Shown here: in pieces, positions 1-54,202 of the stretch
How positions within the stretch are numbered: the first letter of the stretch is position 1
Layout: each line of letters opens with the position of its first letter
Assembly (NCBI GenBank): GCA_026390935.1
Contig: JAPLEZ010000142.1
Location: 35,196 to 99,195, forward strand
Direction of reading: 5' to 3'
Source: Bacteroidota bacterium
Lineage (GTDB): Bacteria > Bacteroidota > Bacteroidia > Flavobacteriales_C > GCA-002722245
Length of the DNA: 64,000 bases
Notes under the pieces: model-generated
Seen by the model: only the letters and a program-made list of their open reading frames with translations
Told to the model about the DNA's origin: nothing
Database searches by the model: none
Program-made: the position numbers and the translations under genes

Positions 1-3000
1 AAGGGAATTTCGTTGACAATGTAAACTCAGGATTTGTTGAAACAACGATCGGATCAATGAATCTCCAATCCAAAGAAGGCAATCCTTTTGTGTTTTGCAC
101 TTGTTTGAATTCTTTGATTTCGTTCACCAATCTTCTTTGCAATTGTGTGATGTCGTTGGCGCGTACAGAGTCACTCATGTTCACGTCGGCAGCGATCATT
201 TGTGTTGCTGTTGGAACAAACACGTTCGGACAGCTGCTCATCAGCAATTGATCCACACAACTTGTGGTATTTAATGTTGTGATGAATTCCATAGCACGTG
301 TATCGCGAGCATTTACAAAGTTGAGTAAACCATTGCTGGTGCCAGCACCTAATGTTACATTGTTGTTGATATCGCGTGAAATTTTCACTACGTTTTTAAA
401 TGAAGTCAACGGCACATTGAAGTTGTTGGTTCCACTAGTTCCACTGTATTGACCCAACACTTTTCCTCCGCAGGAATCCAATACCGTAATGATATTTCTG
501 GCTCCTGTTGGAACAGCGTTGTAATGATTCAATGCAGCATAATTTAAAGTTCCTGCAGTTTTGCTGTTAGGTTGGTAGTATTCCAAAGCACCTGCAAAAG
601 TACCTGTACCAGTGACTTTGAAGGAACCTTTGTTCCAGCACACCGGACGTTCGAAGTAGGTATACGACTCCGTCATTTCGCGCATTGTTAAGTCGATAGA
701 AGTGCCTGATCCAGGATTTCCAACAACGGTAAATGGCAAGCAAATTACCAAACCTGAATCCGTAAATTGGGGAACATTTGGTTTTGATAAGTTGCTGGTG
801 TAGTAAATACTAATGTTTGCGTAGGCAATGTTTGGATCAGTTTCTACACTTGGATTGGTAATGACACTGATTGCATATGTACCAGGGAAGTTTTTCGACA
901 ACACTACTTTTCCTAAGTTACTTGCATTTACTGTGGTTACCGGCGACAAATATCTTTTGTCGTAACGCAATGTGAAGTCCATTCCAATAATTCCATTTCT
1001 TACTGGCACTGTTGCATTGATAGGAATACAAATGTTTTTGTTAGCGCTTCCGCACACCCAGCTAACATTACCAATTTCGTATTCATAACCAATTTTTATG
1101 GTGTGTTGCGCAATACCAATTCTACCGTTTGCATCGTGAACAGTTACCTGGTAGGTAGTGTTTACATTGGGCTGAACTTTCAATGAATCAGTGCTTCCAA
1201 TCACTACTGATGAAGGTACTTGTGTCCACTCGTAAGTCAAAGGTTTAGTGAAGCAATTTCCTAATGAATCAGGAACAATTGCGTTCAATAAAATTGGTTT
1301 ACTCATGTTTTCATTGCCGCAAATTACTGTGCCACCTTTGATGTATACGGTGAACACATCCGGACAAATTTTGTAGGCAGGAGTGATAGAATCAATGTCA
1401 TCCAATTCATTGCCACAGAAAGCAAATCCTGAAGATTTGATCATGGTTTTAGAAGTAGCAACATAAATATCACAACCGCTGGCCACCTTAACATCAAACT
1501 CTAAAGTGATGATTTCATTTCGTGCACCTTGTACTACTGCGCCTGCAAAAGGAGCAACTTTAAATACAGTGTCGTTCAAACTCAACGCATACAATTCGCT
1601 GTTCAATGCTGTGCTGTTGTTTTTGATAGCAAAATCAAGAGGTTTAGCTAAAACTTTAGCGCCGTATTTTACTACAATGCTTGCAGTATCTAAGGTTAAA
1701 CCATCCGGAAAGTCAATATCGTATTTCACTTTATTCACTTCCGATCCTGTACTGGTTAAAGTGTGGATGTAATGAATTTTCGGATTGATACAACTTTCGC
1801 TAACGCTTTTAGCTGTTACATTTCCTAAGATTCCAGAAGTGATAGAGTAAGCTTTCACATCTTCTGTTGAGTAATAACACAAGTCGTTAAGATTATCAAA
1901 ATCAGTTGGCCATGCGTTGCAATCCCAACCAAATCCAACTTCAAAAGTTGCCGGATTGTTTGGATCGTTAAAGCATTTTGCTAAAGAACCTTTGATGCTT
2001 AGCGCAACAGATTTTTCCAGATTGATGGTGTTCGCTGTATAGGTGTTTTGCGGATCAATCTGATACAAAATACTAACGAAATCACCGTTTACTACTTTGT
2101 TCACTTCAGTTACTTCTTTTGGTAAAAGAGAGCTTACTAAAACCGAACTGAAAATAGTTTGATCATAAGTTAAAGTAACAAAAGGGAATTTTGCAGGAGA
2201 ACCGTTGCTGCCGTTGTTCAAGCTGAAATCCAAATTGAATTTGCTGGTGGTTACCGCTACAATTCCGGTTGAACTCAAAGTACTGGTGAGTTGATTTACC
2301 GGAGTTTCATATGGATTTCCAGGATTTTGAGAAACCATCACGTCGTATTGACTGATAGGATCCAAATCAAAGAAAGCTTTGAAACGGTATTGTTTTCCAA
2401 GTGCAGAAGTATCAGTAGGTTGAGTAGGGGTATAATCCCTGCCAGCTGGAATTTGATCGCACACCGCTTCATTGGTTACCCAAACATAATCCAATAAATG
2501 CTCGTCGATTTGTCGCATTGAATTTTTATTGGTGCCGTTGATTGCATCAATATCGGTAATTGGCGTGTAAATATTTGGAATGGACAAATGCGATAAAGTG
2601 TAATTAATTCCATCTATCACTGCAGTGGTAGATGGTGCGTTGGTAACACCAACACCAGAGTATGAACCGCCAGTATAATAAGCTGGAGCAGTTTTTCCAC
2701 CATCAGAAACTGAGCGATCAATTTTCATGAATTGATATCCTTCAGGAGTTAAAACATCTACTGCTTCAATCATTGGAGCCGGACGGAATTCGTTGGCGAA
2801 AAGTTTAGGGAAATTGTAATTTCCTATGGATGAAAAGAAGGAAAGCAAACGTCCTTTGTCGCACGATTTATCTTTTGCGTAAGTTCCAAATCCGTCTCCA
2901 TACCAGTAATCCTGCTGCACCGCAACGAGGTTGAAGATGGCTTCATAGCCCTCACAATTCAACCAAGTGTTTTTGTAAAACGGTGAAGTGAAAACTGGTT

Positions 3001-5544
3001 TAGGGATAGTTTCTATCACTTTTCCAGCTGAATCTTTTACCACTGGACCGAGTTTAGGGTCGCAGGAAAATTGCGGGAAATCACGAACATACAATGCAAT
3101 TGGAGTTGATGAGAAGTAAGGCATATTTTGGAAGCTCACTTCTTCATAAGCATCTTTTGTTTTCACATTGTATTGAATGTCCATGAAGAATTCAATTTCA
3201 ATTTCATCAGATGACTTGAAACGGAAATTTGGAGCCAGTGCGGGAGATCCGGCATCTTTGTAAGTGTTCATGGTGTTCACGTTTACTTCAAACAGGGATG
3301 TTCCAGTGTTGGCTTGTGTAAGCATTACAGCTGCCGGAACATGAAAAGTGTAATTGGTTCCACCGCTTGTGATGATTACTTTAAAAGGGAGTGATTTATC
3401 TACTTTAAAGGTGTCGTTTGGAAAGGACATGCGCAGATAAGAATATTTTAAATCGCCAATCATCTTGTCGTCAAAAATAATTCCGTTGCATTCTTCAGAA
3501 GAAGTTAAATAGTATTTGGTGTTCATTTGAACACGGTCGCCAACAATTCCAAACTTAGTACGAATGTTATTGTCGGGATTGTTATCCGTGTTTAAATTTT
3601 TTACTGCAGTGGCAGTTAAAGCACTACCATCATCAGGCAAACTATTGTCGTTGTTGTCCACCTGCCCGTAGGTCAAACGTGTCATTTTTGCAAAGCGACC
3701 AGCACCACCAGGGAACATGCAACCAGGGCACATGATATTAGCATCACGAGTGATTTTAATTGAAGGCATTACAAGCGGATTTCCGCAAGAAGCATCTGCT
3801 ACCAAATACATTTCAACGGAATAATTCGGACGCTCTTCTCTGTTCGGATCACTGCAGTTTCCAGTTAACGAATAAGCAATATCTGCAGCGTTGATGTAAT
3901 TATATAAAATCTGACTTTTCTCATCAAAATTACTTTGCGCCAGTTTTGGATACATGGCGTACAGGTCTTTCATTTTGAATTCAAACATTTTAATTTTTTT
4001 GTAATCGTATTTCGGTGTTTCATCTGTAGGGATGTTGTAGCCAACCGGTGATCCCAAAATATTTGTAGGATTCCAGTTTTTTCCATCCGGACTTCTAAAT
4101 TGCAAGTGGGGATAATATCCTCCTGCACCGGTTCCAACATAGTAATTGAGTCCACCTTCTAATTTTAAAACAACAATTAGTCGTGCGTCGTCGGCTTGGT
4201 AGTTTACTCCGTCGGAGTAGCTTGTACCTAAAAATGCATAAGTATTGTTTACAAATAAATTGTCGATTCTGCAGTTTCCGGTTTCGTTGGATTGCAGTGT
4301 TGAAACACGCTCAACATATGTGGCGGCATTATCAACATAATCACCATAACATGCCCCGCAAATCACATGATTGAAATAGAAGGTAGTGTTGGCCACGTCG
4401 GGATTCGTGAGCGGATTGGCAGTAGTGTTTTTTGCAGTAATTTTTGCAGCTGTTCCTAGTTCTGCATCACAATCGTCTTTCCCCATCCAGCTTGTACTCC
4501 AGCCGTCGTAAGAAGCAGTTGTAAAGTTTTTTAAATCAATGGTAGGTTGACAGTTGTATACTTTAAATTCAATGTAGTACATGTCATTGCCAGTAATATT
4601 TCCCAACGGAAAATATGCTCCGCTGATGGCATCAGAAAAACATCTTGTAACAGATCTTTTAACTGCTCCTCCGTATTTTGGATGCGGTACTGCTGTGATC
4701 GCCAATGGAGATCCTGTGCTTACATATTGTTTTGTAGTTGTGTTGTAAGTTGCTTTGTAAATTTTTACTGAGCTAAGTGGCACTTCTTCGGCGCCACCAG
4801 AAGAAACGCTTAAATAAAAATCTTTTACAGTTTCACCTGACGTTGGATTGTGCATTTTTGTGAAATAACTCACCTTGCGGAAACCGCTGGAAGGAGTGGG
4901 CTTTTTAGGATTGTAAGCACAAAAATCGTGACTACTTACGGCCACGTCCATTACATCAATAAATTCGCTTTTGGCTTTAGAAATTCTTTGTACCAAACGT
5001 GTGGTGCCCGATTGCCAAGCATCTTGCATTTGAAAGCAATTGCTCCCTTTGCTGTCGCATACATTTAAATCAACTGTTGATCGGCCTTTAACAATGTCAT
5101 CAATACAATCGGTTACTTTTACTCTTCTTGTAAAAATTAATCCTTTGTTGGCGCCAACGCTAATAGGTAAATTGTTTACCACTAATTGGTAAACGGTCCC
5201 TGAAACCAGACTTCCTTTTAATGTTGCATTGCCTGTAGTTTTCCATGAAAAAGTTGTTCCAGCAGGAATAGCTCCGTTTTCATAAGTGACCACTACATCT
5301 TGTAAACTAAGGGCCGATCCGTAAGTGTCGGTGTAAGAAATCACACCGCTGAAAGAAGTGTTACCCGTGTTTCTTACGGTGAAACTTTTGGTGAGATCGG
5401 TTCCTTTAAATGCGGTTAAATCTCCCGCAATAAAATCCTGAAAATTTGGAGCTGTAACAATAAGTTTCAGCTCTGCCTGTGCAGCAGCATACAGCGCTGC
5501 CAGCCAGACCATCATGAAGGTGAGTAAAATTTTTTTTGCTTTCA
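1..5544 (-). CDS. Giant T9SS-secreted surface protein, paralog B. Partial: the C-terminus runs off the left window edge
   Basis: Reverse-complement of 5544 downward reads MKAKKILLTFMMVWLAALYAAAQAELKLIVTAPNFQDF, close to the N-terminus of the 8039..14458 product. DNA similarity to 14320..14458 was seen directly. No stop occurs before the window edge, so the ORF track omits it. I did not trace every codon for frame integrity. Confidence 0.7.
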
Positions 5545-5667
5545 TTTGTTTGCGATTTAATAGAGGTTAAGTCTTTAAGTGCGCAAAACTATTCAGCAAA
5601 TGGTAGATGCCATATACCCATTTTTGGGTGATTTTACTTCGATAAAATTTTGGTGATTAGAAAGGGA

Positions 5668-6456
5668 TTACATCAATCCGTTTGTTTCGGCTAAAGCGAT
5701 CAACTGATGAACATTATTCACCCTCATTTTTTTAAGCAGATTGTTTCGGTGGTTGTAAATAGTACGTTTGCTGAGGTAAAGCTTTTGGGCTATATCTTCG
5801 GTGGAGTTGTTGTTTTTTAAAAGATGAAGGACGGATAATTCTTTTTTTGTCAGACTTTCTTTCTTGTTGAAATTATAAAAGCGCTGTGCTTTTACCACTT
5901 CAAATTTCCCTTCTTTATTTTTTTTTAAAGTAGTAAACGTGATGGCCTCATCCTGCTTAAAGTGATTGATATTATTGAGAAAAACAATAATGGTCGCCGG
6001 AATGATCCTGGCCTTTGTGTCGTGTACTATTGTGCTATTCATTATCCAGCTGTATTCGCCGTCGGGTTTTCTGTATTTCAATGTTACAGTGAATTTTATG
6101 TCGGCAACATTATGGGTTAAACAGTGCAGCGACATTTGGCGAAACATTGTCAGTAATATCTGATTGGAATGGATTTTAAAGTGATCGGGATGAACTAAGC
6201 TGGGAAGAAAATTTCCTTCCCTTCCTAATATTTCTTCTGCCGACCAGCCGATGACATCTTTATGGTTCGAACTCACGTAGAGGAGTTTTTTCTGCACAAG
6301 ATTATACACATGAAAAGCTTCCGGAATGAGCTTGAAATAGGGATTATTCAATTCATGCTGATAAGAAATTTCTGTTGGCTGCTCCTCTTGGTTGTGAAAG
6401 AAGCGCTTGTGTAATTCACTGATCGTTTGTTGTATATCTTGTTTGGAAGTTTTCAT
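5668..6456 (-). CDS. PAS-domain LuxR/GerE-family transcriptional regulator
   Basis: C-terminal LuxR-type HTH (LTKKELSVLHLLKNNNSTEDIAQKLYLSKRTIYNHRNNLLKKM). PAS-like core (GWSAEEILG...). Paralog of the next gene. Start overlaps the upstream stop by 4 nt. Confidence 0.8.
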   Translation of the reverse strand: MKTSKQDIQQTISELHKRFFHNQEEQPTEISYQHELNNPYFKLIPEAFHVYNLVQKKLLYVSSNHKDVIGWSAEEILGREGNFLPSLVHPDHFKIHSNQILLTMFRQMSLHCLTHNVADIKFTVTLKYRKPDGEYSWIMNSTIVHDTKARIIPATIIVFLNNINHFKQDEAITFTTLKKNKEGKFEVVKAQRFYNFNKKESLTKKELSVLHLLKNNNSTEDIAQKLYLSKRTIYNHRNNLLKKMRVNNVHQLIALAETNGLM

Positions 6457-7241
6457 ATCAATCCGTTAGTCTGAGAAACATGGATAAGTTGATGTACATT
6501 ATTCACCTGCATTTTTTTTAATAAACTGTTGCGATAGTTGTATACAGTGCGTTTACTGAGGTGAAGTTCTGTTGCGATTTCTTCGGTGGAGTTGTTTGTT
6601 TTTAAAAGATAAAGTACTGACAATTCTTTTTTTGTTAAGCTGACTTTGTTGTCGAAGTTGTAAAATCGTTGTGTTTTTACAACCCTAAAATTTCCTTCTT
6701 TATTTTTTTTCAAGACATTGAATGTGATGGCTTCGTCTTGCTTAAAGTGATTGATGTTGTTGAGGAAAGAAATCACTGTCATTGGAATAACCTTCATTGT
6801 GGATTTGTGAACAATAATTGTGTTTAATATCCAATCGTAATCACCATTTGATCTCCTGCATTTCACGGTAAGACTAAATTTTATTGCAGATGGATCATTG
6901 GATAAGCAATGCGCCGAAAATTGGCGAAACATGGACAATAAAATTTGGTCGTTGTACAACTTGGCGTGGTTGGGATGTATTGTGGTAAGCATGAAACCAG
7001 GGCCTCCAGCCATCATTTCTTCAGCGCTCCATCCCATTACATGTTTGTAATTCGGACTTACATATTCAAGTTTTTTAGTGATTAAATTGAAAACGTGAAA
7101 GGCCTCGGGAATGAGTTTGAAATATGGATTGTGTAATTCCTCTTGATACAAAACATCTTTATAATCATTGCCATTGTTTTTGAAAAAACGATGGTATAAA
7201 TTATCAATTGTGTTTTGGATATCTTGATTTGAGGATTTCAA
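6453..7241 (-). CDS. PAS-domain LuxR/GerE-family transcriptional regulator, paralog
   Basis: 262 aa, collinear with 5668..6456. Same PAS plus LuxR HTH layout. ATGA overlaps at both ends. Confidence 0.8.
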   Translation of the reverse strand: MKSSNQDIQNTIDNLYHRFFKNNGNDYKDVLYQEELHNPYFKLIPEAFHVFNLITKKLEYVSPNYKHVMGWSAEEMMAGGPGFMLTTIHPNHAKLYNDQILLSMFRQFSAHCLSNDPSAIKFSLTVKCRRSNGDYDWILNTIIVHKSTMKVIPMTVISFLNNINHFKQDEAITFNVLKKNKEGNFRVVKTQRFYNFDNKVSLTKKELSVLYLLKTNNSTEEIATELHLSKRTVYNYRNSLLKKMQVNNVHQLIHVSQTNGLI

Positions 7242-7912
7242 TTTGGGGTGGTTTTGTTTTTCTTTTTTATGTTCTTCCTGATCGTACTTACAGTATGCAC
7301 ACTGATCCCTAGTTTTTCTGCTATTTGATTGCTTTTATTTCCTTCTTTAATGAGTTTCATCACTTCATTTTCTCTGGGAGATAGCAATGTGTATTTTACT
7401 AAAGAAGTTGACACAGTTTCTTTTGCCAGCAATAAATGTTCGCCGTCAGGTTGAATTTTTTCAACTGTAAAAATTAAAGAATCAAATGGCGTTTCATCCG
7501 TTAAATCAGTTAAAAACAAAAGAGCTGTTTCTTCTTGTTGTGGCAGGTACATGTAACGGGTAAGGAAAATTTTTATGTCGTCACCATCGGCAAGGGGAAG
7601 ATTAATAGAAAACCGCAATTCTGTTTTTTCGTATTTATTTGAACTGTTCCAGGTAATTAATTCCTCTACTTTTTTGCTGTAGGGTTTGGCAACTAAATTT
7701 AAGATGAACTCATTTTCGAACATTATTTTTTGATAGATACTCTCACCAAGTATTTCTCTACAGTTCTTACTTACATGTAAATATTTATTTTGTTTAAAAT
7801 CATAAATGATGATTGCCGAAACAGAATGTGCAAAAATGGAAGACAGTAATCCTTCATCAATCTTATTTATGAAAGAAGATAAGACTGTATTCTTTGATAC
7901 AGATTCGTACAT
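7238..7912 (-). CDS. LuxR/GerE-family transcriptional regulator with N-terminal sensor (PAS-like) domain
   Basis: C-terminal LSPRENEVMKLIKEGNKSNQIAEKLGISVHTVSTIRKNI is a canonical LuxR HTH. Overlaps the downstream gene by 4 nt. Confidence 0.75.
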   Translation of the reverse strand: MYESVSKNTVLSSFINKIDEGLLSSIFAHSVSAIIIYDFKQNKYLHVSKNCREILGESIYQKIMFENEFILNLVAKPYSKKVEELITWNSSNKYEKTELRFSINLPLADGDDIKIFLTRYMYLPQQEETALLFLTDLTDETPFDSLIFTVEKIQPDGEHLLLAKETVSTSLVKYTLLSPRENEVMKLIKEGNKSNQIAEKLGISVHTVSTIRKNIKKKNKTTPN

Positions 7913-8038
7913 AGTTAAGTAATGTTAGGTTTTGGTGCTCAGCATAAAATTACAATAATTTATGGAAACGTAAAGGATATTAAAAAGCAAAACCCTCCAC
8001 GGGCGGGGAGGGTTTTGCACACAAGCATTTCTAGAGGT

Positions 8039-11000
8039 TTATTCAACAATAAATTTTATTGTTTTGTTTTGCTTGCTTTGAGCATCATGAATAGTACAGA
8101 AGTAAACACCTTTGCTTAGTTCTTGAGCCAAAACCGTTTGTGTTCCGACTTTTTCACTAATGAATGTTTTGTATATTGATTGACCAAGCACGTTGCTGAT
8201 TTCAATGTAATTGTGTTCATCAGCTGATGTGAAATGGTAAGTGATTTTGGATTCATTCACCACCGGAGAAGGGAAAATTTTGAGTTCGAACATTACGCCT
8301 TCGCCGAGAGGGGAGTTAACGTTGGTGGATCCTTTACCAACAATTTCCACATTCGCCCAGTCGCCATTGATCATGCCATAGCCAGTTTTCAAATCATTGA
8401 TAGTTAAGGCCTGGCCATCCAGCTTACGAACAGTGATGTAGTAGCAGGTACCTTTGGTATCCCAGGTGACAGGAGTGTAATTGGTTGACCGCAAATAATT
8501 GCTGCTGGCATCGTTGTTCCACATGAAATGGCTTTCATTGCCTGAAATACTGATGTCTTCTGTCATATCAACAATTTTCAGTGTTTGCGGGTTGTATTCC
8601 AATCCAAGGTCGAAACCGTATGCTGCTGCAGTGTCAGGAGCAAAGTAATTTACTGCGATACGGTAGTCGGTGGAGTTTAATTTTTCTGCTTTTTGCAAAT
8701 TGATGTTGAATGTGAATGGGCTCAACACTTTATCTGCGTCTTCAGTTTTAAGATGTAAGTTAGAAGTGTAATATTTACTGGTATAGTTCACCACATCGCC
8801 TAACAATATTCCTCTGAAGATTTCATTCGGACTGTCGGCGCATTGTTCCTGTATAGTAATACATTCAGGAACATTAGGCACATTGTCTCTCCAGTAACGC
8901 ACTTTTCCATCGTTGAAAGGATATTTGGTGGAGATCGTAAAATCGGGGTTGGTAGTTAGAATATCCGGATCGATGAATCTCCAGTCGAGTGATGGTTTAC
9001 CTTTTTGGTTTTGTACTTGTTTAAATTCGGTGATTTCACCAACCAATCTGCGTTGCAATTGAGTGATGTCGTTCGCCCGCACGGAGTCACTCATGTTCAC
9101 ATCGGCAGCAACCATTTGTCCGGCAGTTGGGATAAAAATACCAGGACAACTGGTGAGCACCATTTGATCAACACAGCTGTAGTTGTTCAATGTTGTGATG
9201 TATTCCATGGCTCTGGTATCGCGAGCATTTACATGATCAAGAAAGTTGAGTTTGGTGTTGTTGTTGATGTCGCGTTTGATCTGGATTACATTTTTGCTGG
9301 AGCTTACAGGAACAATAAAATTATTGGATGAATTGGTTCCTTTGTACGTGCCTAAAACTTTACCACCACAAGAATCAAGCACAGTGATTGTATTCAACGC
9401 ACCATTTGTTGTACCTATGGTGTGTGTAAGACCCTGGTAAAGTGAAATGCCTCCTGTTTTTTTGTAAGGTTGGTAATATTCAAGTGTTCCGGCAAAGGTT
9501 CCTGTGCCTGTTATTTTGAATGTGCCTTTATCCCAACAAACCGGTCGCTCAAAATAAGTGTACGACTCGTACATTTCACGCATCGTGAAATCAAAGGTAG
9601 TTCCAGCCGCTGGAGTTTTCTCTACAGTGAAAGGAACGCAGATTACCAGTCCCGAATCAACAAATTGTGGTGATCCCGGACCACTATGGCTGTTGTAGTA
9701 AATACTGATATTGGCGTGTCCGATATTTTTATCAGTTTCCACCGAAGGAGTTGTATTTACGCTGATGGCGTAAGTTCCTGGATAGCCGCCATTGAGCACT
9801 ACTTTTCCAAGATTTGAAGAAGATATTGTAATTACAGGCGATACATAACGCTTGTCATAACGGAGGGTGAAATCCATACCGATGATTCCTTTTCTTACGG
9901 GAACTAAAGCATTAATTGGCACGCAGATGTTTTTGTCTTTGCTTCCGCAAACCCACTTCACATCGGCGATGTCATATTCAAATCCTACTGAAATTGTATG
10001 TTGGTCGATGGCACTTCTTCCTGCAGCATCGTGCACCACCACTTGGTAAGTGCTATTCATTGTTGGTTTAACAATCAATGAATCGGCAGTTCCCAAAATA
10101 GTGCTTGAACCTACTTTAGTCCATTCATAAGTTAATGGATAAGTAACACAATTGCCTGGAGTATTGGGAACCACAGCTTTCAGCACAATTGGCGCGCTGG
10201 AGGCTTCATTGCCACAGATCACTGTTCCTCCAATGATGTTTACACTAAAGCTGTCGGGACAAGCTTTGTATGTTGGAACAATAGTATCCAATTCTGATAA
10301 TGTTGTTCCGCAGAAAGCAGATCCTGTAGTGAGAATAGAAGTTTTAGAAGTTGGAACATAAGTGTTGCAGCCACTGGCCACTTTTGCATCAAATTCCAAT
10401 GTGATGGTTTCATTACGTGCACCTTGCACCACTGCACCAGCAAAGGGAACTGTGCTGAATGCCGTGTCTTTCAGGTTGATGTTGTAAATGCCCTTATTGG
10501 ATGTTGTGCTATTGTCTTTAACACCATAAAATACTGGTCTGGACAGAGCGGCAGATCCGTATTTGATAACAATACTGTTGGTGTCTAAAGTCAATCCATC
10601 AGGGAAGTCAATATTATATTTTACGTTATTTACTTCTGAACCTGTGCTGGTGAGGTTATGTGTAAAATGAATTTTAGGATTGCTGCAATCGCCGCTCATA
10701 TCCGTTGAACTTACATTTCCTAAAATTCCGGAAGCGATGGAATAGGCTTTTATGTTTAGCGTATCATAGTAGCAAAGATTAGTTAAATTAGAAAAATCAT
10801 TTGGAAATGCATTACAATCCCATCCATAGCCAATAATGAATGTAGCCGGTTTTTTCGCATCATTGATGCATTGAGCTAAGCCACCCGTAATTTTTAATGC
10901 GATGCTCTTATTTATATCTAAGGTGTTTGCCATATATGTTCGCGAATCCAACGGGTTTACTCCGTATAATATGGATACTATATCGCCACTCACAGTTTTT

Positions 11001-14000
11001 TTCAATTCAGTTACTTGATTGATAAGTGATGAACTTAATGTGATGGGATTAAATTTTGTTTGATCGTATGTTATTGTAACAAATGGAAATTTTGCTGGAG
11101 AGCCATTGCTGCCATTGTTTAAGGAAAAATCGAAGTTGAACGATCTTGTGGTTACAGCTACAATTCCTGTTGAAGTAAGAGTACTGCTTAATTGATTTAC
11201 TGGTGTGGCCAGGTCGTTTCCGGAAGACCGAGAAACAATGACGTCCGAATCAGTAATTGGGTCCAAGTCGAAAAACGTTTTAAATCGGTATTGTAATCCT
11301 AAGGCTGAAGTGTCTTTTGGCTGATCAGGAGTACGAGTTCTGCCTGCAGGAATTTTGCTGCAAACAGCTTCGTAGTTAATATATACATCATCACGTATAT
11401 GTTCATCAACCTGACGCATGGCACTTGACTGTGTCCCACTGCTTACTTCAACATCTGTTACGTTGGTGTAAATTCCGGGGATATCAAGATGAAGAAGGGT
11501 GTAATTAATTCCACCGATAGTAGCTTTACTGGCTGGAAGTGATTGAATTCCGGATCCCTGATAATAGCTCATTGCATAGCCTATGGGTACAGTTTTTCCA
11601 TCATCAACTCCCCATCTTTGGATATTTGTGAATTGATATCCTTCAGGAATAAGTGCATCTACTGCTTCAATCATGGGTGCCGGTCGGAATTCATAATTAA
11701 ATAATTTTGGAAAATTGTGATTTCCTATTGATGAAAAGAAGGATAATCGTCGATATTTATTGCAAGATAAATCGCTCTGGGGAGTGTTGTATCCATCCGG
11801 ATACCAGTACTCTTGCTGAACTCGGACTAGATTAAAAATAGCTTCGTAACCTTCGCAATTCAACCAAGTGTTTTTATAATAAGGATTGGTATAGGGAGGT
11901 GTGGGAATTGTCTCAATTACATTTCCCGCAGGATCTTTTACTACCGGTCCTAAAACCGGATCACACTGAAATTGTGGGAAATCCCTAACGTATGCCGATT
12001 TAGGTGTGGAAGAAAAGTAAGGCATGTTTTGAAAACTCACTTCTTCGTAAGCACCTGTAGTCTTTGAATTTTCTGTGATATCCATGAAAAATTCAATTTC
12101 AATTTCATCATAGGATTTAAAGCGGAAGTCTGCAGGTAAATCTGGTGATGATGAATTTTTGTAAGCATTAATCGTATTGATATTAATTTCAAATGTATTG
12201 CTGGTGGATGCGCTTTGTGTCAACAACACCGAAGCAGGCACATTAAAGGTGTAGTTTATGCTATTGCTTGTAATAATCACTTTTATAGGATTGACTTTGT
12301 CCACTTTAAATGTGCTATAAGGAAAAGTCATTTCCAGATAGGAATATTTTAATTCACCAATCATTAAATCATCGAAATGATGGCCCTTGCAATCTTCATA
12401 TCCTGTGAGGTAATATTTAGTATTCATTTGAAGGCGGTCACCCACAATTCCAAAATTGGTGCGAATATTATTATCAGGATTTGCATCGTTGTTTATTGTG
12501 TTTACATCTGCATTGGTCAATAGATTTCCGTTATCTGGAATACCATTGTTGTTGTTATCTACTTTGCCGTAGTTTAGCCTTTTCATGGTGACAGATCTGC
12601 CAGCTCCGCCTGGAAATTGACAACCCGGACACATAATATTGGTATTTCGGGTGATTTTTAAAGAAGGCATTACCAGTGGATTCCCACAAGTAGCATCTGC
12701 TATTAGGTACATTTCCACTGAGTAATTTGGTTTTTCTTTTTTCTTTGGGTCGGCGCAATTCCCAGTTAATGAATAAGCGATATCTGCTGCGTTTAAGTAA
12801 TTGTAAAGTATGGTACTTTTTTGATCGAAATTACTTTGAGGAAGAGTGGGGTAAAGTTTGTATAAGGTAGTTAAATCAAATTCAAACATTTTTATTTTCT
12901 GATAGTCGTATGCCGGCAACTCATTCGTGGGGATATTATATCCTACTGCCGTTCCGTTGGTGTTTGTAGGCAGCCAATTATTCCCATCCGGATTTCTAAA
13001 TTGCATTGTAGTATAATATTTGGCATCGCTTCCGGTATAATAATCCAAACCTCCCTCTAACTTTAATACAATTACAAGTCGGGCTTTATCTGCTTGAAAG
13101 TTCACTCCGTCACCGGGACCAGCGCCTAAAAAAGCACCCTCATTGCTTACAAATAGATTATTCAATCGGCAATTTCCGGTTTCATTTTCCTTGAGAGTAG
13201 AAACACGTTCAATGTAAAGAGCATTATTGTCTACATGTTCTTCATAGCATCCGCCGCAAATCATGTCATTGGCGGGTCCAAAATAGGTGGTATTCGAAAT
13301 ATCCGGATTTCCTAAAGTATTTGTTGTAGTTTTGTTCTTAGCTGCATAGGAAGCCGGTTCCTGCATAAATCCATTACAGTCGTCTTTCCCAATCCATCTA
13401 TTGGTCCATTGGTCGTAATAATTTACAGTGAAATTCACTAAATCTATTTTAGGTGCGCAATTGTACACGTTGAATTCTACATAGTAGGCATCTGTTCCAG
13501 AGATATTTCCGATGGGGAAAAAAGCGTCGGAAACAACATTAGTAAAGCATTTCGGATTTGATTTAATAATAGCAAGCCATGGTTTTGTTGGGTCAGCAAC
13601 CGGTGTAATAGTAAGAGGGGATCCGCTGGCTTGGTATTTACCGGTAGAGGTATTTAAAACAGCTTTATAAATGCGTACATCATTAATTGGAATTTCTTCT
13701 TCACCGGCAGAGGATATTTTGATACCAAAATCTTTTACTGTTTCACCTAAAGTTGGATTGTGCATTTTAGTGAAGTAGCTCACTTTACGAACACCGCTAT
13801 TGGCCGTAGGACTTATAGGATTGTAAGCACAAAAATCATGAGCTTCAACATCGATATCAAAGACATCAATAAATTCATTTTTCGCTTTGGATATATATTG
13901 AACTAATCTAGTTCCTGTTGACCAGGCATCTGCCATCTGGATGCAATTTGCGCCATTGATATCGCAAACATTTAATTCAATAGAGGATTGTCCTTTGGAG

Positions 14001-14458
14001 TTCACATCAATACAGTCGATTATTTTTACTCTTCTGGTAAAAATCAAGCCTTTGTTTGCACCTATGCTGGCAGGAAGATTGGTTACAATGAGTTCGTAAG
14101 AAGTCCCTGAGTTGATGCTTCCGTTCAAGGTTGCTGTACCAGTGCTTTTCCATGCAAAGGTAGTTCCGGCAGGGATAGCGCCTCCTTCGTAAGTCACCAC
14201 AATATCTTGCACGCTTAGCGCTCCTCCGTAATTATCTTTATAAGAAATAACTCCGGTAAATGGGTTGTCCGCATTACTGGTGTTTCTTACAGTAAAACTT
14301 TTGACGAGATCGGAGCCTTTGAATGCTGTTAAATTCCCTGAAGTAAAATCCTGAAAATTAGGAGCTGTAACAATAAGTTTCAGCTCTGCTTGGGCGTTGG
14401 CGTAAAGCGATGCCAACCACACCATCATGAAGGTGAAGAAGATTTTTTTTGCTTTCAT
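8039..14458 (-). CDS. Giant (2139 aa) T9SS-secreted surface protein, paralog A, with type-A (Por_Secre_tail) C-terminal sorting domain
   Basis: N-terminal signal peptide MKAKKIFFTFMMVWLASLYANAQA. C-terminal ...GVYFCTIHDAQSKQNKTIKFIVE typical of a T9SS type-A CTD. Contains Ig-like segments, Cys-rich motifs (ICGGCY, MCPGCQFPGGAGR) and a dockerin-like motif (AADVNMSDSVRANDITQLQRRLVGE). Confidence 0.85.
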   Translation of the reverse strand: MKAKKIFFTFMMVWLASLYANAQAELKLIVTAPNFQDFTSGNLTAFKGSDLVKSFTVRNTSNADNPFTGVISYKDNYGGALSVQDIVVTYEGGAIPAGTTFAWKSTGTATLNGSINSGTSYELIVTNLPASIGANKGLIFTRRVKIIDCIDVNSKGQSSIELNVCDINGANCIQMADAWSTGTRLVQYISKAKNEFIDVFDIDVEAHDFCAYNPISPTANSGVRKVSYFTKMHNPTLGETVKDFGIKISSAGEEEIPINDVRIYKAVLNTSTGKYQASGSPLTITPVADPTKPWLAIIKSNPKCFTNVVSDAFFPIGNISGTDAYYVEFNVYNCAPKIDLVNFTVNYYDQWTNRWIGKDDCNGFMQEPASYAAKNKTTTNTLGNPDISNTTYFGPANDMICGGCYEEHVDNNALYIERVSTLKENETGNCRLNNLFVSNEGAFLGAGPGDGVNFQADKARLVIVLKLEGGLDYYTGSDAKYYTTMQFRNPDGNNWLPTNTNGTAVGYNIPTNELPAYDYQKIKMFEFDLTTLYKLYPTLPQSNFDQKSTILYNYLNAADIAYSLTGNCADPKKKEKPNYSVEMYLIADATCGNPLVMPSLKITRNTNIMCPGCQFPGGAGRSVTMKRLNYGKVDNNNNGIPDNGNLLTNADVNTINNDANPDNNIRTNFGIVGDRLQMNTKYYLTGYEDCKGHHFDDLMIGELKYSYLEMTFPYSTFKVDKVNPIKVIITSNSINYTFNVPASVLLTQSASTSNTFEININTINAYKNSSSPDLPADFRFKSYDEIEIEFFMDITENSKTTGAYEEVSFQNMPYFSSTPKSAYVRDFPQFQCDPVLGPVVKDPAGNVIETIPTPPYTNPYYKNTWLNCEGYEAIFNLVRVQQEYWYPDGYNTPQSDLSCNKYRRLSFFSSIGNHNFPKLFNYEFRPAPMIEAVDALIPEGYQFTNIQRWGVDDGKTVPIGYAMSYYQGSGIQSLPASKATIGGINYTLLHLDIPGIYTNVTDVEVSSGTQSSAMRQVDEHIRDDVYINYEAVCSKIPAGRTRTPDQPKDTSALGLQYRFKTFFDLDPITDSDVIVSRSSGNDLATPVNQLSSTLTSTGIVAVTTRSFNFDFSLNNGSNGSPAKFPFVTITYDQTKFNPITLSSSLINQVTELKKTVSGDIVSILYGVNPLDSRTYMANTLDINKSIALKITGGLAQCINDAKKPATFIIGYGWDCNAFPNDFSNLTNLCYYDTLNIKAYSIASGILGNVSSTDMSGDCSNPKIHFTHNLTSTGSEVNNVKYNIDFPDGLTLDTNSIVIKYGSAALSRPVFYGVKDNSTTSNKGIYNINLKDTAFSTVPFAGAVVQGARNETITLEFDAKVASGCNTYVPTSKTSILTTGSAFCGTTLSELDTIVPTYKACPDSFSVNIIGGTVICGNEASSAPIVLKAVVPNTPGNCVTYPLTYEWTKVGSSTILGTADSLIVKPTMNSTYQVVVHDAAGRSAIDQHTISVGFEYDIADVKWVCGSKDKNICVPINALVPVRKGIIGMDFTLRYDKRYVSPVITISSSNLGKVVLNGGYPGTYAISVNTTPSVETDKNIGHANISIYYNSHSGPGSPQFVDSGLVICVPFTVEKTPAAGTTFDFTMREMYESYTYFERPVCWDKGTFKITGTGTFAGTLEYYQPYKKTGGISLYQGLTHTIGTTNGALNTITVLDSCGGKVLGTYKGTNSSNNFIVPVSSSKNVIQIKRDINNNTKLNFLDHVNARDTRAMEYITTLNNYSCVDQMVLTSCPGIFIPTAGQMVAADVNMSDSVRANDITQLQRRLVGEITEFKQVQNQKGKPSLDWRFIDPDILTTNPDFTISTKYPFNDGKVRYWRDNVPNVPECITIQEQCADSPNEIFRGILLGDVVNYTSKYYTSNLHLKTEDADKVLSPFTFNINLQKAEKLNSTDYRIAVNYFAPDTAAAYGFDLGLEYNPQTLKIVDMTEDISISGNESHFMWNNDASSNYLRSTNYTPVTWDTKGTCYYITVRKLDGQALTINDLKTGYGMINGDWANVEIVGKGSTNVNSPLGEGVMFELKIFPSPVVNESKITYHFTSADEHNYIEISNVLGQSIYKTFISEKVGTQTVLAQELSKGVYFCTIHDAQSKQNKTIKFIVE

Positions 14459-14556
14459 TTGTTTGCGATTTAATAGAGGTTATGTTATTAAGTGCGCAAA
14501 ACTATCTAGCGAATTGGGAATCGCAAATACCCATTTTTACCTGATTTCGGTTTTGG

Positions 14557-14598
14557 GTGCAATAAAAAAGCCTTGTCGTTTTTGCGACAAGGCTTTTT
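14557..14598 (-). terminator. Rho-independent terminator (bidirectional hairpin) downstream of 14620..14841
   Basis: Perfect inverted repeat AAAAAGCCTTGTCG (loop TTTTTG) CGACAAGGCTTTTT, flanked by A/T runs. Confidence 0.7.
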
Positions 14599-14619
14599 AA
14601 AATTCTTGAATTTTATTTT

Positions 14620-14841
14620 TTAATATTCGTCCTCATTAAAGAGGAAATCATCTTTAGTTGGATAATCCGGCCAAATTTCTTCGATGGATTCGTAAGGCTC
14701 ACCTTCGTCTTCAATCTCCTGTAAGTTTTCAATTACTTCCATTGGCGCTCCAGAACGTTGAGCGTAATCAATCAATTCATCTTTGGAAGCTGGCCAAGGC
14801 GCGTCCGTTAAATACGATGCTAATTCTAATGTCCAGTACAT
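14620..14841 (-). CDS. Small acidic conserved hypothetical protein (DUF2795-like)
   Basis: 73 aa. MYWTLELASYLTDAPWPASKDELIDYAQRSGAP...WPDYPTKDDF pattern recalled for DUF2795. Followed by a strong terminator. Confidence 0.55.
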   Translation of the reverse strand: MYWTLELASYLTDAPWPASKDELIDYAQRSGAPMEVIENLQEIEDEGEPYESIEEIWPDYPTKDDFLFNEDEY

Positions 14842-17376: not shown

Positions 17377-18974
17377 TTAAAGTATGGTCATGGTGCGGTT
17401 TATGGTGTATGTAATACCGTCGGCACCTCGCACAACAATTTCTAACGACACGCTTTCATTTTTTCGTAAGGCTCTTATAGAATTGATTTGAGTAGGATTG
17501 AAAACGCCACCGGGAGCATCTGTTTGAGGTCCCAGATCACTTCCCCTCACAAACTGTACTTTACAACTTTGTATGCTAGGAGTTGCGCTTAAAGGAAAAT
17601 CGTCGGAATATTTCGCTTTTATTTTCCCGATAGCCAATATTTCCGACTTATTGATTTTACCGCCAACTTCTTTATTTCCTAATATTATCTCCGGTTTTGG
17701 AAGTTTTTTGATCATCCATTGGTAAGTTCCCATGGTTTCCCATTTTCCTGGACTAATTTCTGCCTGAACCACGATATCCGTTTTTCCAATCGCGTTAGGT
17801 GTAAAGACAAATTGGCCATTGCCTTTTTTTGAGATGCTACATTTGCTATTAGACACACGAATTTTATCGCTTGAAATCCCTGGAACGGAAATAGTCATTT
17901 CGTTGGCCAATTTCATGTACATGATATTCAGTTTATCCGATGAAACTACTGCTGACGGCTGAGCTACCAAATATTTATTTTCAAAAGGATAAGTTAAAAA
18001 CTCTCCCTTGCGTTTCGGATTGGGATGCGGAATTCTCACTACTCCTTTCCATGTATGCTCGCCAACAGAGTTCCCCATACTTGCATAGTTTCCAAACCCG
18101 TCTGTGATATTCAATGTATCAGCTTTAGATCGAAATTTCAACTCTCCTGATGTGGTGAATAAATCGCTATCGTAATCTCCTATTAAAATGATGGCTTTTG
18201 CGTGGTATCCGACGCGGCTAAAAATATTTGCGCCTTGTATTGCTCGCCTTTCATCACATAACTGCTTTGCGCAATGGTAGCGGCCTGTATTTTATTCACC
18301 TTGTAAGTGTCTATCCCCAATTCTTCAAAAAGATAGTTGATGGTAATAGACTCGGTATTTCGTAAATAAGATTGAATATTGCTGAGGTTGGCGGTTACTG
18401 CAGCCAGCGGAAGATGCTCAGAAATTCCTGCTTCCCAAGTGGTTTTGCTTCCTTCGTAATCTTTGTATTCATCAGTCGCTAAAAGTGTGGAAATACTTTG
18501 GCGGATGGAAGTGTCTTTTTTATCAATCAAATTGACAACATATTCCTTCAAAGCAGTAATTTTTTTTCTTAAATCTTCGCCATGGCCCTTGGTCATCAGG
18601 TATTCAGCGCCGATGTCCTGATTGTCTTTCGCCAGCGGAATATTGTGCTCATCCACGCCGCCGGTATTTTCGATGAGCCACGTTTTGTGGGTTTCAATCA
18701 AAGCCGACAATTCCTGAATTTTAGCCTTCACCGTTTTGGCTTTTAGTAAGCTTTCTTTTGCCGCTTTGGAATTGGTGGCTGCTGCTGCTTCAATTTTGTT
18801 GTAGACGGGCTGAATATTTTCCACAAAATTATTGGCGGTGAGGTCGATTCCGCTTTCTAATTTTAAAAAAGCATCCAGTAAATCTTTGGATGCATTCATC
18901 GCCAACATGGCGAGTAATACGAGATACATCATGCCTATCATTTGCTGGCGGGGACTGAGTTTTTCTGCTGACAT
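17377..18974 (-). pseudogene. gldM: gldM/porM (gliding motility / T9SS motor component) disrupted by a frameshift. The N-terminal fragment is 18183..18974 and the C-terminal fragment 17377..18141, whose frame is open up to 18291
   Basis: N-terminus MSAEKLSPRQQMIGMMYLVLLAMLAMNASKD matches the GldM N-terminal TM region. The C-terminal fragment carries the GldM Ig-like domain motif SSDKLNIMYMKLANEMTISVPGISSDKI. The two fragments are in different frames with a 108-nt overlap. Adding one A to the A4 run at 18185..18188 yields a continuous protein of about 517 aa (...SDTTQKPSFLIGDYDSDLFTTSGELKFRSK...). Confidence 0.75.
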
Positions 18975-31550: not shown

Positions 31551-33413
31551 ATGAGCTTTATAGTCAATCGCGTGCGGGTTATTTTTGCGACCACATTCTT
31601 CGTTATTTTTTTTAGTTTTCAGGGATACGGGGTTACCTATTACGTGAATGACAATTCAACTACGGGCGACATTTACTGTTCGGCAGTTGGAAATAATGGA
31701 ACTGGAACGGGCTCACAATCGAATCCCTACTTAACGGTTTCTTATGTGATAAACAATAAGACTTTGGGTGCCGGAGACATTGTATACATTGATGCTGGAA
31801 ATTACAATGAAGGTTGGGTTTTAAATTCCAATGCTGATGGAGGAAGTGCCGGAAATCCTTTGACGTTCCAAGGAGCAGGAGTTTCGTTGACGAAAAATAT
31901 TTACACCTCTTCTCAGGGAATAGCTATTGGAAATGGATCGGGTGCAGGTAATAGCTACATTACTTTTAAAGATGTGTATGTAGAAACTACACAAAACGTA
32001 AACACGGTATATGTTAATGCCGGAACGTCAAATATCATTTTTAATAGCTGCTCCTTTAAATCGGTGGTTAGTGGTGCGGCGATCGTTTTTATGTCAGCAA
32101 GCTCATGTAGAGTGATATCGTGCAGTATTAGCACTGTATACAATGGCATTGACTCCTATAACGGCTCAAATCAGATTTTCGACGGGAACACAATTACGCA
32201 TGCTTCGGCCTATACAGCTGGACAAAATCATCTTGGAATTATTGTAGAAGGTACTACAAGTTTTCCTGCACCTTATTTGGCAGACAACTGTGTTATTAGT
32301 AGTAATCGCGTGAGTGGATTTAATTATGGATTTTACATTCAACAAGAAGGCACCGGAAACACTTGGAAGAATAACTATGTGTGGGCAACTGAATACGGTT
32401 TGTTTTGTCCCAATAGCACATATAGTCATGCTTCCAACACTTTTAAATTCAATTCCATTTTATCTGATAAGGATTGTATTTACGGTGCTTGTTTAAGCTG
32501 GGACATTCAAAGCAACATTCTTTATTCCAACACGAGAAATTGTATCACTTTGCTGGATGCTTCCAACGACCCATCTACAATGAATTATAATTTGTATTAT
32601 GCACCAAGTGGTAACATTGGAAGCAGAAATGGGACTACATATGCAACTTTGGCGGCTTGGAAAGCAGCGCTTTCAAAAGATGTCAATAGTTTAAGTGGCA
32701 ATCCTTTATTTTCAAGCACTACAGTTTTGGATATTACGGGTTCATCTCCAGCAATTGGGCTTGCAGGCACCGATGCTGGCGTAACGGATGACGTGCGAAG
32801 AAATCCGACTTACACTCGTCCAACAAGCAATAAGGATATTGGGGCTTTTCAATATAGCAGTGCAGTCTTGCCTGTTGAACTCATTGATTTTTCTGCGTTT
32901 GTTGTTGATGGCGGCAATGAAGTTAGTTGGGTAACTGGTACTGAAATTAACAACGATTATTTTACACTGGAGCGTTCTCATGACGGAATAAACTTTAGTG
33001 CTATTCATTATGAAAAGGGGGCGGGAAGTTCTAATTCGATCATTAATTATTCATATGTTGACAATGCTAAATCTACTGGAATCGTGTATTACAGACTGAA
33101 GCAAACAGATTACGACGGCACCTTTTGCTACTCAAAAGTAGTAGCTGTAGAAAGTAAAAATTCAAATAATTTCTCTTTTTTACTTTACCCTAATCCTTCC
33201 AATGGCAGTACAATTTCCTTTGTTCTGCCTGAAAATAAAGCATCTTCATCCTTAGAAATATATGATGCTTTAGGTAAAATAATATTTTCTGAAAAACTCA
33301 CTTCTCAGAGCCACTATATTTTGGAATGGAGCGAAAAACCCGCTGCTGGTGTTTATTTCGTGACTTTGAAAAGTGGTGATCAAAGTTTTAATCAAAAACT
33401 AATCGTGGAGTAA
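31551..33413 (+). CDS. Secreted right-handed parallel beta-helix (PbH1) repeat protein with T9SS type-A C-terminal sorting domain
   Basis: Signal peptide. Repeated NxxFxxCxF/GxxxG beta-helix turns. C-terminal ...GVYFVTLKSGDQSFNQKLIVE. Confidence 0.75.
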   Translation: MSFIVNRVRVIFATTFFVIFFSFQGYGVTYYVNDNSTTGDIYCSAVGNNGTGTGSQSNPYLTVSYVINNKTLGAGDIVYIDAGNYNEGWVLNSNADGGSAGNPLTFQGAGVSLTKNIYTSSQGIAIGNGSGAGNSYITFKDVYVETTQNVNTVYVNAGTSNIIFNSCSFKSVVSGAAIVFMSASSCRVISCSISTVYNGIDSYNGSNQIFDGNTITHASAYTAGQNHLGIIVEGTTSFPAPYLADNCVISSNRVSGFNYGFYIQQEGTGNTWKNNYVWATEYGLFCPNSTYSHASNTFKFNSILSDKDCIYGACLSWDIQSNILYSNTRNCITLLDASNDPSTMNYNLYYAPSGNIGSRNGTTYATLAAWKAALSKDVNSLSGNPLFSSTTVLDITGSSPAIGLAGTDAGVTDDVRRNPTYTRPTSNKDIGAFQYSSAVLPVELIDFSAFVVDGGNEVSWVTGTEINNDYFTLERSHDGINFSAIHYEKGAGSSNSIINYSYVDNAKSTGIVYYRLKQTDYDGTFCYSKVVAVESKNSNNFSFLLYPNPSNGSTISFVLPENKASSSLEIYDALGKIIFSEKLTSQSHYILEWSEKPAAGVYFVTLKSGDQSFNQKLIVE

Positions 33414-44669: not shown

Positions 44670-44699
44670 GGTTTAAATTTTTCGCAATTTATAAATTAA

Positions 44700-45686: not shown

Positions 45687-45697
45687 AATTTCTTCAA

Positions 45698-47401: not shown

Positions 47402-47440
47402 GGTAGATGTATATAAGTTTTTCATTTGTTTCTGTTTTCT

Positions 47441-49399: not shown

Positions 49400-49424
49400 T
49401 ATTTCGTTGAGTTATAATGAGTAT

Positions 49425-50324: not shown

Positions 50325-50334
50325 GTGTTTTAGC

Positions 50335-50922: not shown

Positions 50923-51016
50923 TCAATGAATTTTTAGATAAGTAATTAAACAATGATAAAATATTAATAACAAGAAATCAAGCAAATAGTCATTTATTTC
51001 ACGTTCTCAAAACTTC

Positions 51017-51046
51017 TGTAAATAGCTGATAATTAAGCTATTTACA
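51017..51046. promoter_or_regulatory. Palindromic candidate operator TGTAAATAGCT-N8-AGCTATTTACA
   Basis: Perfect 11-bp arms with an 8-nt spacer. Shares the TAGCT-N8-AGCTA core with the palindrome at the hipB promoter. Confidence 0.4.
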
Positions 51047-51227
51047 TCTATGTTGTTGCGGATTGGTCGCAATCATTATCTACGCTAAAGTACTGATAAT
51101 TAATGATATTGTCAAATATACACTAACATTTATTTTTCGCTTGTATAACATATCGTTTGGGACGGGGGAGTAAAAGATTTTTGGGGAGGGAAGTTTATTT
51201 TGACGTTTTAATAAACAGAAAAGGTAA

Positions 51228-52783: not shown

Positions 52784-52787
52784 TAAA

Positions 52788-54178: not shown

Positions 54179-54202
54179 AACTATGGGGTATAGTAAGTAT
54201 TC

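Follow-up and report, generated by a model that had tools for sequence, protein, structure and literature searches.

The stretch of DNA analysed here, 64,000 nt of contig JAPLEZ010000142.1 from GCA_026390935.1, the genome assembly of an uncultured member of the Flavobacteriales (Bacteroidota) (positions 35,196 to 99,195 of the forward strand; hereafter the window), begins with two giant and similar genes that are separated by three small regulator genes. The question raised by this locus is whether the pair was formed by a recent and still ongoing duplication or represents a far older arrangement. Every gene in positions 1..14841 lies on the minus strand, in the order DUF2795, B, R1, R2, R3, A, with A and B encoding giant proteins with tails for secretion by the type IX system (T9SS) and R1 to R3 encoding regulators with LuxR-type DNA-binding domains. 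A first-pass annotation of the sequence had interpreted the arrangement as a segmental duplication, promoter included, of a locus that is still duplicating. Comparison with related genomes suggests that it is probably an old two-paralog cell-surface protein locus, with an ancestral layout and repeated loss in relatives, and not a fresh duplication.

The existence of two collinear copies of about 65-70% identity, as described in the first-pass annotation, was readily confirmed. Repeat finding revealed 8 families of direct repeats that tie positions 1..5634 to 8917..14547 at a constant offset of ~8.9 kb; the same type of search detected no inverted repeats in the window, and no third or partial copy of the giant gene is present there. 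The proteins encoded by A and B are 66.4% identical over 1856 alignment columns with 17 gaps, the identity in successive 100-column blocks ranging from 51 to 79%, and the similarity is thus collinear throughout and not limited to the N-terminal 50 residues. Internal stop codons were found neither in B nor in the 1848 codons of A that lie within the window. The complete A protein corresponds to the NCBI entry MCX6182736.1 (P0048; 2138 aa), which is 100% identical over the 1848 residues encoded in the window.

The sequence divergence between the two copies argues strongly for an old age of the duplication. Synonymous sites of A and B are saturated over the entire gene (NG86 synonymous divergence, dS, of ~4; nonsynonymous divergence, dN, of 0.26), with a third-position identity of only 48% at identical residues, and each copy has a closer ortholog in another genome than in its neighbor in the window. 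The single-copy gene of the related locus L001 (P0001) shares 88-89% identity with A and the gene of L011 shares 88%, while B has 77-78% identity with a truncated gene in L003. The dN/dS ratios in these comparisons (~0.08 for A and its ortholog in L001; 0.09 for B and L003), together with the lack of stop codons, indicate that both paralogs are functional and maintained under purifying selection.

The organization of the corresponding loci in relatives leads to the same conclusion. In L011 (GCA_023251095.1) a remnant of the B-type gene precedes one short and one long regulator, after which come an intact A-type gene, DUF2141, a second short and a second long regulator, and SecA. The B remnant (L011:281-620) consists of a degenerate promoter piece with AAAAATGGGTAT, the last ~30 codons and the terminator, while the short regulator is 60% identical to R1 and the long regulator, a 263-aa ortholog of R2, is 68% identical to R2. 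L003, a metagenome-assembled genome (MAG) from the GTDB collection with the closest backbone (gltB 95% identical at the amino acid level), contains a 5'-deleted B-type gene, three regulators, and SecA; its deletion scar (L003:9988-10100) extends from just past the -33 region to ~codon 900, so that the promoter block AAAAATGGGTAT is joined to the latter. In L001 and L004 a single giant gene lies between DUF2795 and DUF2141, and a short regulator, a long regulator, and SecA come next. The proposed check of neighboring genomes yielded single-copy loci (L001 and L004), a truncated B (L003), and a B remnant next to an A-type gene (L011), with the window genome being the only one seen with both giant genes intact. 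Scans of the metagenome and GTDB collections returned only three loci and one locus, respectively, and no further double-copy state was found in that way. The scars of the B-type gene in L003 and L011 are independent of each other; a common deletion hot spot after GGGTAT was considered and rejected, since L011 keeps degenerate promoter sequence beyond that point. Likewise, the idea that the single long regulator of L011 is a recombinant of R2 and R3 was dismissed because R2 is its closer counterpart over almost the entire protein. With a B remnant, two regulators, and an intact A all retained in L011, the arrangement with two giant genes is older than these genomes. The ancestor within the Flavobacteriales would, as judged from these comparisons, have carried giant B, a short regulator, one or more long regulators, and giant A, followed by the tail found in relatives (DUF2141, short regulator, long regulator, and SecA), with the whole array placed between DUF2795 and secA. 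Individual relatives would then have deleted or truncated one of the giant genes.

The strongest apparent sign of a recent event is the similarity of the two copies at their 5' ends, and both its extent and its meaning have to be revised. The regions around the start codons had been called nearly identical, which is an overstatement: A and B are 83% identical over 274 nt (5361-5634 vs 14274-14547), 75% identical over the 100 nt upstream of the ATG, and exactly identical only in a 41-nt stretch over the start codon (5529-5569 = 14442-14482). Nevertheless, this is the most similar part of the two copies, compared with ~66% elsewhere, and in codons 26-50 A and B are 87% identical whereas B and L001 are 77% identical. 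Moreover, 3-4 sites in the leader and the first 40 codons have states common to A and B that are absent from L001, L004, and L011. Such a pattern would be expected if the gene and its promoter had been duplicated recently and were still being amplified, with the 5' end as the least diverged remnant or as a tract of gene conversion. However, the pairwise identity of the leaders of A, B, L001, and L004 ranges from 73 to 84%, and the leader is also present in L011, so that the similarity between the leaders of A and B is not exceptional when compared to that among single-copy orthologs and does not serve as a mark of duplication. The few sites specific to the window are too weak a basis to claim gene conversion. 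Together with the gene-wide saturation of synonymous sites, the closer ortholog of each copy in another genome, the ancestral layout indicated by L011, and the lack of any additional copy in the window, these results render a recent or continuing duplication extremely improbable. The 5' similarity appears to reflect mostly constraint, that is, purifying selection on the promoter, the 5' untranslated region (UTR), the signal peptide, and the first beta-strand.

An alternative of a different kind is that the tandem layout was created during assembly. The window originates from a MAG, relatives carry an A-type or a B-type gene alone at this site, and two strains with one type each could have been merged via the shared 5' sequence. 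Consistent with this possibility, a contig from an independent Logan assembly of run SRR20698652 (L007) breaks exactly within the 41-nt repeat. The same contig, however, is 100% identical to window positions 5540..10742 and spans the junction between the R3 stop codon and the A-specific leader, which is unique sequence, and this junction is therefore not the artefact of one assembler. A merger through the shared repeat would also have placed A after DUF2795 and not after R3, and in L011, as independent evidence, an A-type gene likewise comes after regulators that have a B remnant upstream of them. In addition, R3 (MCX6182737.1, 100% identical) and R2 (MCX6182738.1) have accessions consecutive with that of A on one 101,397-bp MAG contig. 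An assembly artefact thus has a very remote chance of accounting for the layout. B itself is not on record in a collection of 15 billion proteins, as determined by exact look-up and homology search, whereas its contig neighbors A, R3, and R2 are all included; one possibility is that B was not annotated as a protein in the NCBI record.

Lateral transfer, by contrast, finds some support in the sequence data. In this scenario the second copy would have arrived when a divergent cassette, made up of an A-type gene and the regulators belonging to it, was inserted from a related Flavobacteriales lineage beside a resident B, or a resident A would have been replaced later by homologous recombination. 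Between A and its ortholog in L001, dS amounts to 0.86 for the whole gene and drops to 0.2-0.44 over the final 450 codons, with a mosaic of values from 0.2 to 1.8 along the gene, whereas the flanking gltB has a dS of 1.70 and the synonymous sites of cobA, MT, and DUF2795 are saturated between the window and L001. Third-position synonymous identity is 67% for A and L001 and only 46-56% for backbone genes. Furthermore, even though the backbone of the window is closest to that of L003, the regulators of the two are only ~40% identical and the B-type genes show no more than the 77-78% identity given above. Because gltB has a higher dS, simple vertical descent with loss does not explain the low dS of A. 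On the other hand, B, the regulators, and A are already linked in L011, so that any insertion must predate that split, and unequal codon bias in gltB and a surface-protein gene could depress dS even if no transfer took place. Genes of mobile elements or insertion scars were not detected at 5546-5667, and the present-day structure is predicted alike by both models. Taken together, we consider a lateral origin or replacement of A unlikely. The low and mosaic dS of A and the divergent regulators suggest recombinational exchange of alleles among lineages at this locus, on top of an old duplication.

Apart from the dS values of A, several other observations weigh against the interpretation of an old two-paralog surface-protein locus. 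A search with the long regulator of L001 found no close homolog on the source contig, and the predicted tail of DUF2141 and regulators is drawn from the relatives. Distant members of the giant protein family (P0003, P0004, and P0005) have no LuxR neighbors, indicating that the link to the regulators is clade-specific and could be only positional, and neither an operator motif nor shared 8-mers common to the leaders of the giant genes and the regulator promoters were found. In the proteins themselves, the N-terminal 400 residues were modeled only at low confidence (a model of residues 1-1150 from 7 sequences had a mean predicted local distance difference test score, pLDDT, of 49.8 and was unusable). 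Of the dockerin-like repeats in B, one is significant and a second is not, with no hit to Pfam Dockerin_1, while the match to cohesin (PF00963), seen in 4 of 7 family members, reached 16.9 bits, which is below the cut-off of 24.1 (Pfam E 0.0075). The old two-paralog locus nevertheless remains the probable explanation, and its features are compiled in Table 1.

Table 1. Positions of the features of the giant-gene locus and of short-type regulators in related loci (positions refer to the window unless a locus is named)
Feature	Position	Strand	Details
Giant gene A, first 1848 codons	1..5545	minus	runs past left window edge; ATG at 5545-5543
Signal peptide codons of A	5474-5545	minus
Leader and promoter of A	5546..5667	minus	-7 box TAGTTTTG at 5584-5591; block AAAAATGGGTAT at 5614-5625; conserved 5' UTR
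R3, long-type PAS-LuxR one-component regulator, 262 aa	5668..6456	minus	GerE 52.6 bits; PAS_3 27.3 bits
R2, long-type PAS-LuxR regulator, 262 aa	6453..7241	minus	TTG start; GerE 52.2 bits; PAS_3 25.3 bits
R1, short-type regulator, 224 aa	7238..7912	minus	GerE 45.3 bits, profile positions 2-44 of 57
Strong intrinsic terminator after B	7987..8018	minus	12-bp stem with 7 GC pairs, then T run
Giant gene B, complete, 2139 aa	8039..14458	minus	open reading frame (ORF)
T9SS type-A C-terminal domain of B	8042-8278	minus
Dockerin-like repeat of B	~8999-9121	minus	E 1.6e-6 vs 4uyp_B
Cohesin-like module of B (weak)	~9593-9943	minus	E 0.016 vs 5lxv_A
Signal peptide of B	14387-14458	minus
Leader and promoter of B	14459..14562	minus	-7 box TAGTTTTG at 14497-14504; block AAAAATGGGTAT at 14527-14538; conserved 5' UTR
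Terminator hairpin of upstream DUF2795 gene	14563..14598	minus	AAGCCTTGTCG-CAAAAA-CGACAAGGCTT then TTTT; read from sequence
Short-type regulator loci	window 7238..7912; L001:16942-17634; L003:13814-14473; L004:9267-9959; L011:711-1382 and 9424-10008

Each giant gene has a promoter-like leader of its own, and B is followed by a terminator. The claim of a promoter in each copy is thus supported as far as a promoter-like leader is concerned. The box TAGTTTTG, which we take to fit the Bacteroidetes -7 consensus TAnnTTTG, is identical in both leaders and located exactly 38 nt ahead of each ATG; in the leader of B a -33-like TTTG lies 19 nt upstream of it. Upstream, the B transcription unit is bounded by the terminator hairpin of the DUF2795 gene, which is also found ahead of the leader in L001, L003, and L004. 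Hairpins equivalent to the terminator after B follow the giant gene in L001, L003, L004, and L011, and the 75 nt past this terminator in the window hold a promoter-like TAATTTTA for the regulator genes. A terminator scan detected no intrinsic terminator on the minus strand between the stop codon of R3 and the promoter of A. As R1, R2, and R3 are joined by overlaps and lead into the promoter of A in this manner, A may also receive read-through transcription. No riboswitch, leader RNA, or other known RNA element was found in an Rfam scan of positions 1-20000 that included the leaders. Its sole match, below threshold, was to the Bacteroides small RNA BTnc231 at 14564..14670 (24 bits vs a gathering score of 80; E 0.32), which covers the 3' end of DUF2795 and its terminator and is most likely due to chance.

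Three small regulator genes between the copies, two of them encoding 262-aa paralogs and one a 224-aa protein, had been reported correctly, although the finer points of their description hold only in part. The proposed combination of a PAS-like sensor with a LuxR-type helix-turn-helix (HTH) domain is supported for the HTH in all three proteins, with scores far above the GerE (PF00196) cut-off of 23.5 bits, while the PAS_3 match (cut-off 25.6 bits) is above threshold in R3, just below it in R2, and absent from the Pfam scan of R1. R1 is nonetheless homologous to R2/R3 over its full length (hhalign probability 98.9%, E 3.9e-17, residues 19-221). Likewise, chaining of the genes by ATGA overlaps applies only to the R2/R3 junction, where the ATG of R3 overlaps the stop codon of R2, whereas R1 and R2 meet in a TTGA, at which R2 starts with TTG. 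The suggested tandem amplification is supported for R2 and R3, which are old tandem paralogs with 63% amino acid identity and saturated synonymous divergence, but not for R1, which belongs to a separate short class conserved in five genomes.

The HTH domain of this short class stops after the recognition helix and lacks the last (fourth) helix of the GerE/LuxR domain; the fourth helix forms the dimer interface in NarL/GerE-type domains. Short-type orthologs of 194-230 aa are present in L001, L003, L004, and L011, and those of L001, L003, and L004 end at the same point as R1, right after the recognition helix (..TIRKNIKKK..). The conservation of such orthologs in other genomes argues against decay as the origin of the short form. 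In the loci examined a long-type partner always lies next to the short type, which is directly upstream of it, and the stop codon of the one overlaps the start codon of the other; a pair of one short and one long regulator accompanies the giant gene in all five genomes (window, L001, L003, L004, and L011). Such a pairing has, to our knowledge, not been studied, and literature searches on PAS-LuxR regulators together with T9SS in Flavobacteria returned nothing relevant.

The nearest solved architectures are those of EL222 from Erythrobacter litoralis and of the structural-genomics protein 3CLO from Bacteroides thetaiotaomicron, in which an N-terminal PAS-like sensor is combined with a C-terminal GerE/LuxR HTH and a receiver domain is lacking, the order also found in R3 and putatively in its paralogs. 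The alignment with 3CLO covers profile positions 129-254, and that with EL222 covers the HTH. Because similarity to EL222 is confined to the HTH, no claim of LOV photochemistry is made; unlike in both proteins, a short class without a fourth helix exists, and short and long regulators occur as pairs. R1-R3 possess neither a receiver nor an autoinducer-binding domain, and matches to such families in NCBIfam and Pfam cover the HTH only and lie far below the curated cut-offs. For this reason an identity as quorum-sensing LuxR proteins or NarL/FixJ response regulators was rejected. The sequence CACCCAAAA was likewise discarded as an operator motif, as it is not enriched (2 occurrences found vs 3.8 expected). 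Based on conserved synteny, local control of the giant genes by the regulators is plausible. In such a case the PAS-LuxR regulators would sense a small-molecule or physical cue and would probably set transcription from the two conserved leaders, while the short R1 class without helix 4 would probably modulate the long class.

The presence of a signal peptide in both copies and of a type-A sorting tail in the complete copy was borne out, and the tail extends to full-length A. Both proteins begin with a Sec-type signal peptide (MKAKKI..LYA.AQA|E, read from sequence) composed of a Lys-rich n-region, a hydrophobic core, and AQA|E. The tail of B matches TIGR04183 with 30.3 bits (cut-off 23) and PF18962 with 28.7 bits (cut-off 27), and that of full-length A matches TIGR04183 with 35 bits, which is also of type A. 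According to this domain content and established knowledge of T9SS, the proteins would be exported by Sec via the N-terminal signal peptide, after which T9SS would recognize the type-A C-terminal domain and carry them over the outer membrane. A run of eight A residues in codons 3-6 (ATGAAAGCAAAAAAAAT) of both giant genes (5530..5537 and 14443..14450) encodes the Lys-rich start of the signal peptide and also occurs in the orthologs of L001, L004, and L011. Since homopolymers of 8 or more A or T occur 17 times in the window, this run is probably not a phase-variation tract.

The giant proteins constitute a very rare family in which Pfam and NCBIfam recognize only the T9SS tail above threshold. 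A word-indexed search of 5.8 billion proteins returned five relatives, and an exhaustive search of 1.84 billion cluster representatives, for which a profile of the N-terminal 1150 residues was used, gave 40 hits at E<=1e-3, with 7 at E<=1e-30. Approximately 10 of these hits are full-length-like relatives of 1,700-3,300 aa; among three that were scanned, P0012 and P0014 have T9SS tails and P0011 has no Pfam match. The block shared most widely in the family comprises residues 540-650. The annotation by profiles and structure prediction that had been proposed for the 2139-aa protein thus provided the T9SS tail and an AlphaFold model of residues 401-1500 (18 sequences, mean pLDDT 76.7), which shows an almost all-beta multidomain chain. 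Foldseek matched this chain only to generic strings of beta-sandwiches at low TM-scores, including integrin alpha legs, MG domains of complement and alpha-2-macroglobulin, Gram-positive pilins, antigen I/II C-domains, DUF11, FN3, and Big. The matches to alpha-2-macroglobulin and complement prompted a closer look at the conserved MCPGCQF block as a thioester-like motif, which was rejected because the Gln is not conserved and is replaced by Met in A and P0004. As neither Pfam and NCBIfam nor Foldseek on the models detected a catalytic domain or enzyme fold, the enzyme part of the initial suggestion of an adhesin or enzyme is not supported, while an adhesin-like role is the best inference. Judged from sequence and model, A and B most likely act in adhesion or in the formation of a surface coat.

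In several respects the giant proteins resemble SprB and RemA of Flavobacterium johnsoniae, which are giant surface adhesins secreted by T9SS; SprB has a type-B tail and a PorP/SprF partner. Similar to these adhesins, A and B are beta-rich proteins of multi-thousand-residue size that begin with a signal peptide and end in a T9SS sorting domain, they form a paralog family of the kind found in Bacteroidota genomes, and a GldM-like gene and other T9SS cargo are encoded in the same window. Unlike in SprB, the tails are of type A (TIGR04183), no CHU_C (TIGR04131) or SprB-repeat hit was obtained, and no PorP/SprF gene adjoins A or B; unlike both adhesins, the A/B family is very rare. Similarity of the giant proteins to any Pfam adhesin repeat was not detected. 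Assignment to the class of SprB/RemA-type gliding adhesins was therefore rejected, given the type-A tail and the lack of SprB repeats and of an adjacent PorP/SprF gene.

Near the C-terminus of B, a calcium loop followed by a helix (residues ~1784-1820, DVNxxxxVRxxDI) resembles the dockerin of the cellulosomal scaffoldin ScaB from Acetivibrio. With a focused profile of residues 1470-1860 this single repeat matches both repeats of 4uyp_B/4uyq_B at the E value given in Table 1, as well as 4fl4_A (E 7.5e-4). Residues 1506-1622 are weakly similar to cohesin. Modules of both types are also reported from various bacteria outside cellulosomes. In contrast to canonical dockerins, which consist of two tandem 22-residue repeats, each a calcium-binding loop and a helix, only one repeat is significant in B, and in contrast to cellulosomal systems both modules occur in one polypeptide and the giant proteins have no carbohydrate-active domain. 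The proteins would be displayed as long strings of beta-sandwiches that include, close to the C-terminus, a calcium-loop repeat of dockerin type and a weakly cohesin-like module. The locus as a whole is comparable to tandem paralogous surface-protein loci with differential loss, in that two divergent tandem paralogs are present, of which relatives keep one, and deletion scars are left behind. It differs from switching loci by the lack of an invertase, inverted repeats, or silent cassettes in the A/B locus and by the full promoters of both copies.

Other parts of the window provide indirect signs of a T9SS in the host genome, namely the GldM-like gene, which is frameshifted, and two additional proteins with T9SS tails, while core genes of the system were not seen. 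The GldM-like gene, a paralog of a component of the T9SS/gliding motor, is located at 17377..18974 on the minus strand and is split into two ORFs by a one-base frameshift near 18141-18183, where CCATCATTTTAATAGG replaces the expected CCAATCATT. It is intact (533-542 aa) in L001 and L003, and the split gene is either a pseudogene or the result of a sequencing error in the MAG. Another T9SS type-A cargo protein of 620 aa with a weak match to a NosD-like beta-helix is encoded at 31551..33413, which suggests that the genome uses T9SS for several proteins. In addition, positions 42423..62707 resemble a glycan-utilization neighborhood that includes a GH81 protein of 1800 aa whose T9SS tail is of type B (CHU_C) (57305..62707), a 7TMR-DISM sensor (55380..57233), and a GH3 gene (42423..44669), a combination that suggests the use of beta-1,3-glucan (laminarin).

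In summary, the locus is of an ordinary kind, T9SS cargo with neighboring one-component regulators, that is well preserved, and it leaves the current understanding of T9SS cargo and LuxR regulators unchanged; its value lies in a documented example and in the correction of its interpretation as a recent duplication. A more far-reaching idea is that the short, helix-4-less and the long PAS-LuxR proteins form a heteromeric switch that chooses which giant protein is made, while the dockerin- and cohesin-like modules dock A and B onto each other or onto a common anchor. We regard this idea as quite improbable. If it were true, the locus would represent a regulated system of surface variation and surface assembly of a kind undescribed in Bacteroidota, and the repeated loss of paralogs in relatives would reflect selection by phages or grazers. 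Independently of this, the giant proteins, as members of a very rare family in which hardly any domain is annotated, and the conserved pairing of short and long PAS-LuxR regulators are worth characterizing. If the locus is indeed an old pair of paralogs, the states observed in the window genome and its relatives, with both paralogs intact, one deleted, or one truncated, would provide a clean series from nature in which the gain, retention, and loss of giant surface proteins in Bacteroidota can be studied.

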